NCBI RefSeq assembly: GCF_051656525.1
Contig: NZ_JBOGCC010000278.1
Coordinates: forward strand, 22,112 to 86,111
Direction of reading: 5' to 3'
Source: Clostridium sp.
Lineage (GTDB): Bacteria; Bacillota; Clostridia; Clostridiales; Clostridiaceae
DNA: 64,000 nt
Of the stretch, positions 29,691-52,285 are shown piece after piece. A model generated the notes under the pieces. It was not told the DNA's origin and did no database searches. It saw nothing but the letters and a program-made list of their open reading frames with translations. The position numbers were made by a program, and so were the translations under genes. The stretch's first letter is position 1. The number at the start of each line of letters is the position of its first letter.

Positions 29691-30257
29691 ATGAAAGTCA
29701 CTAAATCAAAAAAGACGAATCGTCACAATATTCCTAAGAGTGTTCGCCGCAAACTGCGTCAGAATGCCGATAAAAAGCGTGTGGCGCGTCGCGAGAAATT
29801 GGCGAAAATCAGGATGACTTTACGATTCTCAAACAAAGCTACTCATGTTGAGTATATTAACAACTACATCGCGTTGATCGATGAAGACATCATGCGGATC
29901 AGCAATGCTGTTCGTCCTGTCATTGACTTCATGGACAACGTACACGCCAACCCTAAAGCTGCAGAGTGGCTGGTAGCCAATGAAGAACGCGTTGACGTTT
30001 TCGGCGACCAGCTCTTGTTGATCGATGCACACCTGATCAATCTGCGTAAGGTACGTAACGAAGCTGAAGCAAGTCGCGTTAAGTTCGAAGCGACTGAATA
30101 CGAAAACCGCGAAGATATGCTGGCTGATGCTTATGCAATTATCCTGTCTGCGGCGAGCGTTATTGAACAGAGCCTGATTGTTGACAACCAGATCGCTGAT
30201 CTGTTTGAATCAGTATCAGAACTGGAAGTTAATGACATTTTAGGAGCTGAAGAATGA
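29691..30257 (+). CDS. Hypothetical protein with a basic N-terminus and coiled coil
   Basis: K/R-rich first 40 aa; ATGA overlap with the next gene. Confidence 0.75.
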   Translation: MKVTKSKKTNRHNIPKSVRRKLRQNADKKRVARREKLAKIRMTLRFSNKATHVEYINNYIALIDEDIMRISNAVRPVIDFMDNVHANPKAAEWLVANEERVDVFGDQLLLIDAHLINLRKVRNEAEASRVKFEATEYENREDMLADAYAIILSAASVIEQSLIVDNQIADLFESVSELEVNDILGAEE

Positions 30258-31831
30258 AACCACGTAGCGTCCTTCAATTCGAAGAGCCAATTGATGAAGG
30301 TATGCCGGTAGATATGCCGGAGCTGGAATCAGAACCAGAAGAAGAAGAGTCCGCGGCGCCTGTAGAGGCGCCAAAAGAACCTTCTGAAAATGACGGTAAA
30401 AAAGAACAGGCTGAAGAGCCACCTAAACCTTTTAAGGTTCCTTTCCGCCCAATCGCTGTTGACGAGTCTGCGGTATTGGAATTCGGCGAAGGCAAGTTCC
30501 GTATTCCATTAGCTATGGTTGATATCTATCGTGGCGTTGGCGGCGGTACTCTTTCTGAGCCAATCGAAGTTGCGTTCATGCGTAATAACGATAATGCGGA
30601 TCTTATTGAAAATGGCGTATTCCAGGATCAAATGGATTATGCTTATCCAATGACCGGCTTTATTGACCGTACTGCGGTTGATGGCTCCAAGTGGTCAAAC
30701 AACGTTATTGTTGGTGAAGATCATCGTACCAGTCCTTCTGCGGTTCGTCCGAAAGGCAACGACCTGATGGGCATCTTCAGTGCCAGTAACCAATTGGGTC
30801 AAACGACTAAATGGACTTTCCATAACACTGGTGTTGTTATCCACATGCGTGCTGCACTCGATAGTGAACTGATCAATATCGAAATGCAATTGCTTGAAGA
30901 TCGTGCTCGTGTAGGTCTTGAAACACACGGCGTGTGCCTGACATCCGACATGGGTGTTCATATCGGACTACTGGTTGACTTTGCACTGAGCTTAGTCGTT
31001 AAGACCAACGTTCCTCACGATGGTAATATCCAGGCTGCACTGCGTAGTAAGTTGCGCGGACGTGAATCAATTGAGATTCTGTTGGCTGCGGTACTTACCT
31101 CAATGTATCCTCATGGTTTCCCGTGGGCAATTACCTGTAGTAATGCCGGCTGTGCATTCCGTGAAGCTACTGACATTTTCTTCGCTCGCTCACAATGGGT
31201 AGACAAGTCACGTCTTACTGAACGTTGTCTGACTATCCTGCATCGCAACACTCTGAGTCTGCCGGACAAAGAGTATGATGATTATCAAGCTGAGCTCCCG
31301 ACTTCTGTTGGTAAGTTTGAGTTTGGTAATGTGACTTACAACTTTGCATTGCCTACAATCACCGACTATGCTTATGCTACACGTCGCTGGTTAAACGTAA
31401 TCGAAAAAGACAACACTGAATCACTGGCACGTATCGATACTGATGCGCAGCGTGAAGCTTATCTGGATTCTCAGAAAGCTAGCCGTGCTATGATGCAGTA
31501 TAGTCATTATGTTTCAAGCATCGACATCGAGTACGGTGGTACTGTTAGTACTATTGTTGACCGCGATAAGATTGAAGAAGCATTGATTCGTGCTTCTGCA
31601 GACTTGGAGCTGGTGGTTAACTTTATTAACGCCGTGTCTGATTTTGAGCTGATGTCACGCATGACCATTATTGGTCACTTGAACCGTACTTGCAATCATT
31701 GTGGTAAGCATCTGTTTACTGAAGAAGATGAAGTCTGGAAATCTATTGTTCCGCTGCCAGTTGATCGGATTTTTTTTACGCTTACGCAGCTGAAAACGCA
31801 GATTCTGCGTGGAACTCAGAGCAGACGATAA
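30254..31831 (+). CDS. phiKZ gp77-like protein, candidate tail/baseplate assembly chaperone (G form)
   Basis: 525 aa; CSNAGC and CNHCG Cys pairs as in T4 gp26-type proteins; slippery site near the 3' end. Confidence 0.6.
   Translation: MKPRSVLQFEEPIDEGMPVDMPELESEPEEEESAAPVEAPKEPSENDGKKEQAEEPPKPFKVPFRPIAVDESAVLEFGEGKFRIPLAMVDIYRGVGGGTLSEPIEVAFMRNNDNADLIENGVFQDQMDYAYPMTGFIDRTAVDGSKWSNNVIVGEDHRTSPSAVRPKGNDLMGIFSASNQLGQTTKWTFHNTGVVIHMRAALDSELINIEMQLLEDRARVGLETHGVCLTSDMGVHIGLLVDFALSLVVKTNVPHDGNIQAALRSKLRGRESIEILLAAVLTSMYPHGFPWAITCSNAGCAFREATDIFFARSQWVDKSRLTERCLTILHRNTLSLPDKEYDDYQAELPTSVGKFEFGNVTYNFALPTITDYAYATRRWLNVIEKDNTESLARIDTDAQREAYLDSQKASRAMMQYSHYVSSIDIEYGGTVSTIVDRDKIEEALIRASADLELVVNFINAVSDFELMSRMTIIGHLNRTCNHCGKHLFTEEDEVWKSIVPLPVDRIFFTLTQLKTQILRGTQSRR
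31770..31812 (+). other. Candidate -1 programmed ribosomal frameshift signal
   Basis: T TTT TTT in frame 0; acgcag/ctgcgt stem 6 nt downstream; the -1 frame is open from 31765 to 32238. Confidence 0.7.
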
Positions 31832-31923
31832 ATAGCCCTAGCTTCCCAGGTAGCAATATCAGTAAACGTTGGACTACACGTGAAGGCGATCGCAATATAG
31901 TTGTAACGCCAATCGATGAAGTC

Positions 31924-32238
31924 ATGCGGAGTGATTTAACCGGGGTTAAGAGAACCACGATGGATGCAACTGTAGCTTTGAAAGAAGCGTATAGTTCATA
32001 CATTGGCTCTGACCTCGGTAGTTACCAGGTTGGGCGTGGTGAGTCTGAGAAGTATGATGGGAAAACACTGTTAGACGTTCGTTTAGAAAACTATCGTCGT
32101 TTGTGTGTTAAGGAATTCCTTAATATATCCTTTCCTGAATACATTGCTAATCCACGTTGGGTTATTTGTAAGTACGATGCTATGTGTACTAAGTGGTCTG
32201 CTGCAACCCCAGTGATACCAGGAAGTGGTATTATTTAG
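31924..32238 (+). CDS. Small ORF, probably the C-terminal (T) part of a frameshift fusion
   Basis: In the -1 frame of 30254..31831, open upstream to the slippery site, weak SD. Confidence 0.6.
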   Translation: MRSDLTGVKRTTMDATVALKEAYSSYIGSDLGSYQVGRGESEKYDGKTLLDVRLENYRRLCVKEFLNISFPEYIANPRWVICKYDAMCTKWSAATPVIPGSGII

Positions 32239-32248
32239 TACAAAGGCA

Positions 32249-32288
32249 AAAAAAAAACAGGGAGCCCCGCGAGGGGCTCTCTGCTATT
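32249..32288. terminator. Terminator at a convergent junction (copy 2 of the 40-bp repeat)
   Basis: Differs from 24721..24760 at one loop base (gcga vs gcaa). Confidence 0.85.
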
Positions 32289-32640
32289 TCTTTATACTTC
32301 CAACGTTCATGTTAACAGTATATTCTTCTGTCCACACATCTGTAAACATTCTGAATCTGATGTTAACGTCATCTTCTTCACCTTGCGGATTGATGTTGGT
32401 CAGCTGATACTGATAACTGTCATAGCCCGCTGTGTTTCGGATGTTAGATACTCTACGTAACCAGTACGTATTTTTCTTAATGGTGAACTCAAAGAAGCCC
32501 ACGTGGGCTTCTGTTGATAGTTTATGGAAAGCCAGATGTTCGTCTGACGTTCCATCCACTAGCTTATCTAAACAAGCCTCAATGCCTTTATAAGTCAGTA
32601 AGGTTTGGCGCAGGAAGTTCTCCAGCTTACTAAGCCTCAT
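32284..32640 (-). CDS. Hypothetical protein (118 aa)
   Basis: ATGA overlap with the helicase gene. Confidence 0.7.
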   Translation of the reverse strand: MRLSKLENFLRQTLLTYKGIEACLDKLVDGTSDEHLAFHKLSTEAHVGFFEFTIKKNTYWLRRVSNIRNTAGYDSYQYQLTNINPQGEEDDVNIRFRMFTDVWTEEYTVNMNVGSIKK

Positions 32641-34169
32641 ATCACGACTCCAGAGTTCATTGTTATTAATGACCGAACTCTACCAGTTAGAAGTTTTCTT
32701 CGCTGATTATACACCGATACTTGTTTCGGTATATCCATACAGATTGGGTATACTACTTTAGGGTGGATACCCCAACGTTCAATACATCCGTCTCGTGTAC
32801 GGCCTAACATCTGCAATGATTTCTGACTGGCGTTCAAAGAAACCGCGATTACGTTTAAGATAAGGCCTTTATAGTCAACTGCTGTACCGGACTTTCCGTG
32901 TGTCGATACAATAACATCTGCGTTTTCCGTTTCTGCGAAATCATCATCCTGTATGTAACGATAAATCCGTAAGCCTTGTGTCTTATTGCGCAAGTATGTG
33001 GCAAACAACGTACACATCTCACGCGTGTAGAATAAGTACAACGCTTTTTGTCCAGGCTGGAATTCTGCAATATACCATTTATCCAGAATACGGTATAACA
33101 TATCGAAATACCGATACATCATCTGCTTACGCTTCATGATTCCTTTTTCGAATACATGATGCGCATACATCCGCTGTGAGTTAACCCGCCTTACGACTTT
33201 ACGGTCACTCATCCCAAATGCTAAACCGACAACGTCTATGAAAATATCCAGTTCCATTTCTAGACGGACATTCTCTGGGAATCTTTCTAAATAGCGTTTC
33301 TTCAGAAAAGGATCATCGGGCTTTAACGTACCTGAGAGGTCCAGTACCGCGTTTGCGTTTAACGCGATATAACTCCAGTACTGCATACGGAAAAGCTCGT
33401 GTGCTTCATCGTAGACAGTTATATCAACGCCTAATGATGGCAGTATCTTATTCGGGTGAATCGAATCAACTTCATGCATCCATTTCTGAATGAATCTGTC
33501 GATTGTGAACGAAGAACAGAGATATGCTTTCGCTGTAGGTTTCCCGCCTTTCCTGACAAGATCCTCTAGCGTATCTACGCTATCGATTAAGAAGAAGTCT
33601 TCACCTTCGGTTAGGTTCAAGTCTCCCGCAATGTCACTTTTCCACTTTGCCAAATACGCTGGCTTAGTAATGAACATTGGTAATCTTTGGCGTAATGCAA
33701 CTCCCTTCTCTGCTGCAATGGTTTTTCCTTTACCTGTTTGCAGTTCGAATACGTTGTGGTCTCCACTTACTATCAGTGGCGCTGCCGCATTCTGCCAGGC
33801 GTACTTAGAATCCTCTGGCTCCACCATTCTAAAGTTAGGTCGAAACTTAACCTTTTTACCAGGGATAATTTTAGCACGGTCTTCGTACATTGTAACCAGA
33901 ATACGGTTTAAGCCTAATTCTTCCTTCAGCTTGGTGGCCATCGATGGATGAATCAGTATCGTGCTTAAACGTTCGTTTGGAATATAGAAGAAATCACCGT
34001 CATTTGGATCAGGTGGTTCAGCGTATCTGTTGTCTTGTGGCGGAGGAGAATATGCTGGCTTAAAAAGTGCACGACGGCAGAACTGCTCCATCACCTTATA
34101 GCCGATTGATGTCGTAGACACACATTCAACACACCGCCTGAGAACCCTCATTGTAATAACGGTAGACAT
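32637..34169 (-). CDS. Superfamily 2 (DEAH) helicase (phiKZ gp75-like)
   Basis: LQTGKGKT (motif I), YDEAH (II), LSGT (III), QMLGRTR (VI). Confidence 0.92.
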   Translation of the reverse strand: MSTVITMRVLRRCVECVSTTSIGYKVMEQFCRRALFKPAYSPPPQDNRYAEPPDPNDGDFFYIPNERLSTILIHPSMATKLKEELGLNRILVTMYEDRAKIIPGKKVKFRPNFRMVEPEDSKYAWQNAAAPLIVSGDHNVFELQTGKGKTIAAEKGVALRQRLPMFITKPAYLAKWKSDIAGDLNLTEGEDFFLIDSVDTLEDLVRKGGKPTAKAYLCSSFTIDRFIQKWMHEVDSIHPNKILPSLGVDITVYDEAHELFRMQYWSYIALNANAVLDLSGTLKPDDPFLKKRYLERFPENVRLEMELDIFIDVVGLAFGMSDRKVVRRVNSQRMYAHHVFEKGIMKRKQMMYRYFDMLYRILDKWYIAEFQPGQKALYLFYTREMCTLFATYLRNKTQGLRIYRYIQDDDFAETENADVIVSTHGKSGTAVDYKGLILNVIAVSLNASQKSLQMLGRTRDGCIERWGIHPKVVYPICMDIPKQVSVYNQRRKLLTGRVRSLITMNSGVVI

Positions 34170-51156: not shown

Positions 51157-51209
51157 TTTGTTTCGTCCTTTTATTACAGTTTAAGATTTATTGTGGCAGG
51201 TTCACATTG

Positions 51210-51219
51210 ATAAAATATG
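51210..51219 (-). promoter_or_regulatory. Variant early promoter CATATTTTAT upstream of chmA
   Basis: One mismatch to the 10-mer, preceded by an A7 tract on the minus strand. Confidence 0.5.
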
Positions 51220-51244
51220 TGTCAAATTTTTTTGGAACAAGGTT

Positions 51245-52285
51245 ATGATTACCATCGATGTATCAACCGCCACACATCGTGGTGGATCGTTTGACCCGTC
51301 CTTCAAATTAATACGCACTGCAGTTAATAAAAACGTGAGCTACAATATCCGTACTCGCAGACTGGCAGCAGATATGCTTCCACCTGATCATTTATTGATT
51401 ACGATACTAAACTCATTGTCAATTAACCGCAACGATTCACTTGAAGAGATGTATTACAAGTTGCGTGATCGTGTATATATGTTGGGTACGGCTCTAGGCT
51501 TAGTATCACCGACATCATACGGTAAATCGCATCGCCACTTCATGATGGATGGATGTAATGAATACATCTATCTACATTGTGATGACTTCGTTCGCGAAGC
51601 TTGGCAAAACATATCACCGATTGAATTCGTTTATCACGAGGAGACGAACCTTAACACATTATACGGTGGACATCGGAACGAAGATACATACGCTCTGATT
51701 TCCATTAACGTATTTGCGTTAGCTTATCAGTTTAAGTGCTGGCTAAGACAGCGAACGTTAGACGGCTCTACGGAAACTATCCGCAGCTTCTTACACAAGT
51801 TCCCAGTTACCAATGCAATCCACAGTTATACGGATATCAGTTTGTTTAACAGACATCTTTATACGCAGCAAGGCTGGGACATGACTCCAGATAAGAAATA
51901 CCATCTTACGACTCTTATGTCGTTTGACAGCTTACTGGAAAAACATATCCGAAACTTGCTGGAGAAATTAGGTGGTCAAACACACACAATTTCACAAAAC
52001 CTTTATGGTACGGAATTGTTCTACAAGTTAAGTGCGCTTGATTTAATTCCTACTGTGCCTGCTATGCGCTCTCGTCAAACCGGCTGGTTCTTCGATTTAG
52101 CTAAGCTGCCACTTATACTTTATGGCGATACGTTTATGCGTAACACCAATGAAGATTACAACAAGGGGCAGTTATCTACATGGCGTCGTGAACTGACACA
52201 AACTATAGATAGCCACATATGGTCGATACTGCAAAACGCAGCTCCACATATAAAAGAAAGATATCGGTTATTTTTTAAACGGTGA
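51245..52285 (+). CDS. Conserved chimallivirus protein (phiKZ gp52-like)
   Basis: Start moved to MITIDV (AAGG SD); opposite-strand gene between pol and chmA. Confidence 0.6.
   Translation: MITIDVSTATHRGGSFDPSFKLIRTAVNKNVSYNIRTRRLAADMLPPDHLLITILNSLSINRNDSLEEMYYKLRDRVYMLGTALGLVSPTSYGKSHRHFMMDGCNEYIYLHCDDFVREAWQNISPIEFVYHEETNLNTLYGGHRNEDTYALISINVFALAYQFKCWLRQRTLDGSTETIRSFLHKFPVTNAIHSYTDISLFNRHLYTQQGWDMTPDKKYHLTTLMSFDSLLEKHIRNLLEKLGGQTHTISQNLYGTELFYKLSALDLIPTVPAMRSRQTGWFFDLAKLPLILYGDTFMRNTNEDYNKGQLSTWRRELTQTIDSHIWSILQNAAPHIKERYRLFFKR

Follow-up and report, generated by a model that had tools for sequence, protein, structure and literature searches.

Does the open reading frame (ORF) that follows the homolog of phiKZ gp77 in nucleus-forming jumbo phages encode a protein of its own, or is it the C-terminal part of a longer product made from both? 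The question arises in a stretch of 64,000 nucleotides (nt) from contig NZ_JBOGCC010000278.1 of a Clostridium sp. assembly (hereafter the window, meaning the whole of that stretch), where a forward-strand ORF of 525 amino acids (aa) is followed, past an apparent intergenic spacer, by a smaller ORF of 104 aa lying in the -1 frame. We propose that the two belong together: with a probability of roughly 80%, judged from the comparison of sequences, a 661-aa form of the gp77 homolog is maintained by selection alongside the 525-aa form and is made mainly by ribosomal -1 frameshifting at a run of eight thymines (T8) close to the 3' end of the large ORF.

According to the mechanism that we favor, most ribosomes would read through the zero-frame codons ATT TTT TTT ACG at the T8 run and terminate 17 codons further on, releasing the 525-aa protein. 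A fraction would instead slip back by one nucleotide while two tRNA-Phe occupy UUU UUU, both of which can re-pair perfectly, and would then cross the apparent spacer and the 104-aa ORF in the -1 frame to yield 661 aa. The long form would thus exchange a short C-terminal helix for an extra domain of about 150 residues. If the region is read through in the -1 frame in this way, the small ORF would be mainly or only a C-terminal extension and not a separate gene. What we infer here are the ribosomal nature of the slip, its efficiency and any part played by a weak downstream hairpin.

The arrangement of the reading frames can be read directly from the window, and the coordinates of the features are collected in Table 1. 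In frame 0, 17 sense codons separate the heptamer from the stop codon TAA (31829-31831). The -1 frame is closed by a TGA at 31762-31764 and then remains open from 31765 to 32238 (157 codons), with no ATG, GTG or TTG ahead of the ATG at 31924. The reading after a slip begins with YAYAAENADSAW... and runs for 153 codons, giving a predicted trans-frame product of 508 + 153 = 661 aa whose junction peptide is ...IFFYAYAAENADSAW... A preliminary description of this locus, made from the letters of the window alone, had set out the T run, the heptamer, the 17 codons to the stop, the TGA followed by an open -1 frame and the resulting 525/661-aa pair; each of these was re-derived as given.

Both the T8 run and its codons are exceptional in their surroundings. 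Eleven homopolymers of at least 7 bases occur in the window, and T8 is the only one inside a confidently coding region. The genes of the window prefer TTC over TTT for phenylalanine (498 vs 275 codons), 28 of their 32 Phe-Phe dipeptides start with TTC, and the sole T TTT TTT among them is the shift site. A unique coding homopolymer combined with codon use against the bias of the window indicates that the site is more than a product of chance. The other homopolymers are intergenic, most of them in terminator contexts, save a T7 at 51227-51233. This T7 falls 36 nt into the first-ATG reading of an ORF at 51191-52285, whose true start is probably downstream.

The same layout recurs throughout the group. 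We compared the window with 28 loci from other chimalliviruses, spanning about 16 deep lineages and including phiKZ, PS119XW, P. syringae phage D6, Goslar, SPN3US and its Erwinia relatives, RAY, SA002, RSL2, DT01, Yong MS31, Eowyn, BONAISHI, Klebsiella phage MJ359 and Vibrio phage pVp-JHP1101. In all 28 loci, as in the window, the ORF 3' of the gp77 homolog occupies the -1 frame. Open from a point 46-256 nt within the large ORF, this frame stays so until the small one ends, over 157-234 codons, an openness that the +1 frame never shows. Across 31 of 31 genomes, whose proteins are about 20% identical, the frame relation and the open frame are kept. Counted from the slip, the extension measures 152-172 aa in all lineages, so that the insertions and deletions in the apparent spacer have all been multiples of three. 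Conservation of the encoded residues also begins 5' of the possible starts, with an aromatic-Gly motif and, within the group formed by phiKZ, PS119XW and D6, with the whole of the first 60 residues.

At the nucleotide level, the shift site coincides with a conserved Phe-Phe motif and reads T TTT TT(T/C) in 18 of the 21 representative sequences. Without exception TTT serves as the first Phe codon, and the second is TTT or TTC, the pattern required by a slippery heptamer of the form X XXY YYZ. The codon ahead of the Phe pair specifies varied amino acids (I, T, L, V, A, Y or G) and has T as its last base; that this T is kept whatever the preceding amino acid points to selection on the nucleotide and not on the protein. 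Given the third-base T frequency of the window, finding T there in at least 13 of 16 lineages has a binomial probability of 7e-5. Conservation of the heptamer at the gp77 junction was among the checks put forward in the preliminary description, and the heptamer is indeed kept in phiKZ, SPN3US and Goslar, among others.

The window has three nearer relatives, all metagenomic, with 60, 51 and 46% identity, which were recovered from a search of 5.8 billion proteins and are represented in six assemblies; no close relative was found in the phage collection (by megablast, or by tblastn with the extension), in IMG/VR, or among JGI metagenome contigs and GTDB genome contigs. All three carry (A/C)TT TTT TTT, hence T8, and in this clade the frame-0 stop lies exactly 18 codons after the slip. 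The 31778-31831 overlap is conserved in both of its readings, as ...QLK(T/I)QILRG... in frame 0 and as YAYAAENxDSAW straight after the slip in the -1 frame (clade form Y(A/S)YA(A/V)EN.(D/H)S(A/P)W), and its nucleotide conservation is unusually high. The -1-frame peptide of the apparent spacer is conserved too (SPSF..., W, TP(I/L)D...).

Patterns of substitution indicate in which frame this spacer is read. Among the window and its three relatives, changes in 31832-31923 fall on -1-frame codon positions 1, 2 and 3 in the ratio 76 : 72 : 126, the ORF just 3' of the spacer gives 40 : 30 : 62, and the sequence 5' of the T run shows the pattern of frame 0 (17 : 11 : 34). A second clade was analyzed through a nucleotide alignment, blind to frame, of ten SPN3US/Erwinia-type genomes. 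Their annotated 45-nt spacer gives 111 : 398 : 239, with its peak at the third position of the -1 frame, and their annotated small gene gives 90 : 585 : 201, a pattern that matches that of the spacer; protein-guided counts agree with this frame-blind result. Such codon periodicity implies that the evolution of the spacer is that of a coding sequence read in the -1 frame. The transcription signals fit frameshifting as well: no terminator-like site occurs on the + strand in the interval between the large and the small ORF, and a strong terminator lies 3' of the small one (32258-32283), bordered by A10 (32248-32257) and by a T-rich tail. Taken together, the conserved frame relation, open frame, heptamer and coding pattern of the spacer strongly support the central proposal of the preliminary description, a -1 frameshift.

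Independent initiation of the small ORF finds less backing in the sequences. The duplex that the ATG at 31924 could form with the anti-Shine-Dalgarno (SD) sequence amounts to +0.3 kcal/mol, where the median across 61 of the window's genes is -5.6; this lack of SD pairing makes it resemble an internal ATG. In the relative with 46% identity the matching Met is substituted and no downstream gene is called. The ATG at 31960 does better, at -5.7 kcal/mol, and is kept in just one of the three close relatives. The lineages share no conserved start codon: the first ATG, GTG or TTG lies anywhere from 12 to 85 codons past the slip, and in phiKZ the first 70 codons after it are free of any. Lineages with an intact heptamer mostly have no good start preceded by an SD sequence; the annotated ATG of SPN3US, for instance, scores +1.9 kcal/mol. 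The strongest such start (GAGGAG, -8.1 kcal/mol) belongs to pVp-JHP1101, the phage with the most degraded run, which from its sequence looks like a lineage that has swapped frameshifting for independent initiation. In this phage (L001:4100-4260), which among the lineages sampled is alone in having a badly degraded run (GTA CTT TTT), the -1 frame is still open over 40 codons 5'.

To look for natural in-frame fusions of the two parts, we searched 1.84 billion representative proteins with a profile built from the extension and obtained 362 relatives. The best 150 of these 362 are proteins of 66-186 aa with scattered N-termini, apart from P0013, and the lack of merged frames among them fits selection for two products. 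P0013 is a 312-aa metagenomic fragment from a ChrisDB-like phage in which an unrelated indel, about 40 codons 5' of the site, shifts the reading into the -1 frame and on through the extension; its origin lies either in faulty assembly or in a natural frameshift mutation.

Several observations weigh against the proposed frameshift or limit what can be claimed for it. The 661-aa form is known here only as a prediction from DNA. The heptamer is imperfect in three of the 21 representatives, namely D6 (A TTT TTT), PS119XW (A TTT TTC) and pVp-JHP1101 (A CTT TTT), and the lineages share ancestry, so that counts of lineages are not counts of fully independent events. The moderate SD sequence of the ATG at 31960 makes a minor, independently initiated 92-aa product possible, and the absence of any natural in-frame fusion among the best 150 of 362 matches means that "Rosetta stone" support is missing. 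We found no convincing stimulatory structure downstream. The consensus hairpin at 31783-31811 (-7.4 kcal/mol by RNAalifold for the window and its three relatives) shows no compensatory changes in the clade and lies in dual-coding sequence, the 141-nt region is no more stable than its shuffles (z = 0.62), and no common downstream structure emerges across 18 lineages (z from -3.0 to +1.5). As for the stem proposed earlier just past the heptamer (acgcag 31784-31789 with ctgcgt 31805-31810), its pairing is present, rivaled by a tighter hairpin at 31796-31810; the stimulatory role suggested for it looks weak, with no covariation and no excess of stability over shuffles.

Three other explanations deserve consideration. 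As the main rival, the 661-aa form could arise by transcriptional slippage, with a phage or host RNA polymerase adding a U at T8 in some of the transcripts. In its favor, the window, its clade and the 18 lineages show no convincing RNA stimulator of ribosomal slippage, and runs of eight are found in the window, its three close relatives, Goslar, RAY and RSL2; we know of no description of the slippage properties of chimallivirus multisubunit RNA polymerases. However, what is conserved is the register of the heptamer and not the length of the run, which falls to T7 in phiKZ and SPN3US and to T6 in Yong MS31 and BONAISHI, and in bacterial cases the polymerase slips poorly on runs of 6-7. The T6 of the last two phages (TAT TTT TTC) still forms a U UUU UUC heptamer, and a final C is what X XXY YYZ permits. 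We therefore regard polymerase slippage as improbable. A similarly low, slightly smaller chance attaches to two ordinary genes, in which the small protein would be made only from the ATG at 31960 or 31924 while the T run and the open frame would be by-products of Phe-Phe and of descent. All the genome records that we fetched annotate two genes, including 15 of the 15 isolate-phage records read, PHROGs keeps the small protein as a family of its own (phrog_7580), the SD sequence of ATG 31960 is average, and pVp-JHP1101 combines a strong SD-ATG with a degraded run. Against this stand the frame relation and open frame of all 31 genomes with spacer indels in multiples of three, the -1 periodicity and peptide conservation in the spacer and overlap ahead of any start, the lack of conserved starts, with 85 codons devoid of any in phiKZ, and the conserved synonymous T before a Phe-Phe pair that uses TTT against codon bias. 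The annotations themselves are uneven: gene callers place the start of the small ORF at scattered positions, and the RAY record (gp266, L021:3029-3577) begins it 136 nt earlier, within gp267, where a start codon is available, a sign of the difficulty annotators had in finding one.

The last of the three, a homopolymer error or a recent frameshift mutation that split a single 661-aa gene, would come to mind for any error-prone homopolymer, the more so in a metagenome bin of 412 contigs. Yet the T8 run and the two-frame layout are present in six independent assemblies of the relatives, and finished isolate genomes have the layout as well; assemblies made independently from different samples agree on the run, which rules out an assembly error. 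Furthermore, the frame-0 tail is conserved and ends 18 codons on in the clade of the window, and no single-ORF version appears among the best 150 profile matches, the indel of P0013 being a different one that lies upstream. We consider such an artefact or decay very improbable, and ribosomal -1 frameshifting remains the reading that we prefer.

With regard to identity, the gene at 30254-31831 is, by homology, a phiKZ gp77 homolog and as such a core gene of the nucleus-forming jumbo phages (Chimalliviridae). Its product (P0001, 525 aa) matches phrog_4585 (E 6.6e-57) and phrog_8054 (E 4.6e-53), both of unknown function and both with profiles that end where frame 0 ends, and tblastn retrieved 215 jumbo-phage records, PHIKZ077 among them, at 20-30% identity. 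Together with synteny, this bears out the labels "gp77-like" and "chimallivirus" of the preliminary description. The neighbors are homologs of gp78 and gp79, subunits of the virion and non-virion RNA polymerases, of beta type in the window, and a helicase, and every relative for which we read the annotation has the small-large-small order gp78-gp77-gp76.4. The upstream 188-aa ORF, which has no PHROG match, overlaps the large gene by ATGA (30254-30257), an overlap that suggests probable translational coupling of the two within a single operon. In the relative with 46% identity, the gene at the position of the 510-aa helicase of the window (32637-34169) is called as at least 843 aa (L034:5308-6593); it has weak Hom_end/LAGLIDADG_3 matches and may carry an intein or a homing-endonuclease insertion. 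The phage contig, of at least 86 kb (the longest contig with the gene measures 117,768 nt), was binned in a 3.7-Mb, 412-contig bacterial assembly with 4.8% contamination and is probably a binning passenger or derived from an infected population.

Table 1. Features at and around the gp77-homolog locus, in window coordinates.
Feature	Position	Strand	Basis or remark
Upstream ORF, 188 aa	29691-30257	+	At the position of phiKZ gp78
Frame-0 ORF, 525 aa (short form), phiKZ gp77 family	30254-31831	+	Reading frame and PHROG profiles
Slippery heptamer U UUU UUU, inside the T8 run 31770-31777	31771-31777	+	On conserved Phe507-Phe508
-1-frame extension, 153 codons and stop (32236-32238)	31777-32238	+	C-terminal part matches phrog_7580
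Dual-coding overlap: frame-0 tail (17 aa and stop) and start of the -1 extension (YAYAAENADSAW...)	31778-31831	+	
Candidate weak stimulatory hairpin, 7 + 3 pairs, 5 nt past the heptamer	31783-31811	+	RNAalifold clade consensus
Apparent intergenic stretch, coding in the -1 frame	31832-31923	+	Substitution pattern by codon position and peptide conservation
First ATG of the -1 frame (104-aa ORF)	31924-31926	+	Not conserved, without Shine-Dalgarno sequence
Second in-frame ATG (92-aa ORF P0003, choice of the gene caller)	31960-31962	+	Moderate Shine-Dalgarno sequence
Bidirectional intrinsic terminator, ending the three-gene + unit and the convergent - genes	32258-32283	.	11 pairs, 8 G-C

The preliminary description had taken the pair for a lambda G/GT-type tail-assembly chaperone (TAC) made by recoding. 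The anatomy, with a candidate shift near the 3' end of the ORF, has the G/GT layout, a likeness of design only, and we rejected the TAC label: the gene does not lie between a tail tube and a tape measure gene, no TAC homology was detected, and its product has 525 aa. Specifically, Pfam and PHROG yielded no TAC match, and hits to folds named TAC in BFVD had E of at least 1 and a probability of at most 0.11. Otherwise Pfam gave only sub-threshold zinc-ribbon noise and nothing significant, and the PDB offered no match by sequence or by the fold of the gp77-homolog model. This AlphaFold model, built on 13 sequences, has a mean predicted local distance difference test (pLDDT) score of 56, with a core (residues 185-500) at 60-90 and about 180 disordered N-terminal residues. 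The model of the extension (pLDDT 61, confident only over about residues 100-145) matches only its own family.

A different, weak lead comes from BFVD, where Foldseek listed, after gp77 homologs, three entries under the name "Baseplate hub assembly protein, bacteriophage T4-like", with E values from 3.5e-5 to 4.2e-4 and TMt of 0.43-0.52, the targets being predictions as well. The DT01 record likewise cites T4 gp26, and that of MJ359 says "baseplate hub". T4 gp26 is a hub assembly chaperone (Leiman et al. 2010, PMC3004832, Table 2). NCBI gives the same name to the PF12322 family, in which T4 gp26 itself scores 8.8e-64 and for which none of 23 gp77 homologs gave a match at E up to 0.5-1. Full-length profile comparison with gp26 by hhalign was not significant (probability 16% against the single sequence, 0.65% against the family), and only a hand-picked C-terminal sub-alignment of gp77 and gp26 scored, at a probability of 41% (E 2.8e-4). 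In both consensus sequences, a Cys pair is followed by CxxC and then by FF-x-L near the C-terminus, in the same order. T4 gp26 (L035:2803-3429) ends in ...EFFKL, which aligns with the FF-T-L of the gp77 slip site; the fact that gp26 ends where gp77 would slip may reflect an evolutionary link or a coincidence. From T4 gene 26, too, come two nested products, 26 and 26', through internal initiation.

Papers on the Goslar virion structure do not include the gp77 homolog among the structural proteins, in keeping with a non-structural factor, and T4 gp26 is likewise unreported in virion structures. What the Goslar virion paper calls "gp77", in the numbering of that phage, is a different protein, a capsid decorator, and mentions of "gp77" for PCH45 and PhiPA3 are unrelated. 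On balance, we put forward tentatively, at somewhat less than even odds, that the gp77 pair would be an assembly factor of non-structural type, a distant relative of T4 gp26 whose two forms are produced in a fixed proportion. It is more doubtful still that the pair would be the chimallivirus counterpart of gp26, with the frameshift as a functional equivalent, in giant contractile-tailed phages, of the lambda G/GT logic. Were this the case, "chaperone made by recoding" would be right in substance, for a family of proteins not connected with it before, and T4 26/26' would represent a third route.

Full-text searches on phiKZ/gp77, SPN3US, Chimalliviridae, jumbo phages and ribosome profiling with phiKZ found no published or annotated account of this frameshift, in agreement with the earlier remark that none was described in phiKZ-like phages. 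The sequences point to a recoding site that is real, conserved and, as far as we found, unpublished, and whose mechanism belongs to a known kind. If so, all chimallivirus genome records, including those of phiKZ, Goslar and SPN3US, split one core gene into two and miss a protein of about 75-80 kDa. This would bear on proteomics, on structural and functional work on gp77, and on knockout or transposon screens, where disruption of the small gene would affect the long form only. A family-wide case of recoding would be added to a phage group with none described as far as we found, and it would offer a natural test case, that of U UUU UUY without an obvious stimulator in several hosts and with one lineage that has seemingly switched. 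If the link to gp26 holds, the role of this core gene would point to baseplate hub assembly.

Known systems share parts of this design. In Escherichia coli dnaX, which makes tau and gamma, the heptamer is A AAA AAG, an upstream SD sequence and a downstream hairpin stimulate the shift, and the shifted frame stops at once. The likeness lies in the homopolymer-type heptamer and in two products of one gene made at a set ratio; the dnaX shift, however, shortens the protein and relies on strong stimulators, whereas the shift here would lengthen it and no strong stimulator was found. T4 gp26 differs in that its second product comes from internal initiation and not from frameshifting, and gp77 homologs are 2.5 times longer, with an N-terminus of about 180 disordered residues. 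In lambda G/GT and the TAC frameshifts of long-tailed phages, the shift is thought to set a fixed ratio of products, and the G chaperone has about 140 aa. The gp77 locus resembles these in its common N-terminal body, in a predicted -1 slip near the 3' end and in a layout kept across divergent genomes even where the protein sequences are not, and differs in its RNA polymerase and helicase neighbors, its 525-aa body and its lack of a TAC match. T7 gene 10 makes 10A and, as a minority product with a C-terminal extension, 10B, by a -1 slip on the heptamer G GUU UUC. That gene encodes a capsid protein and not a member of the gp77 family, and here the heptamer is U UUU UUU and the extension, a conserved domain of about 150 aa, is listed in databases as a separate gene; in both cases, a long ORF has a U-rich heptamer within a few codons of its stop, and the slip there gives, or here would give, a minority product whose extension has no start of its own.

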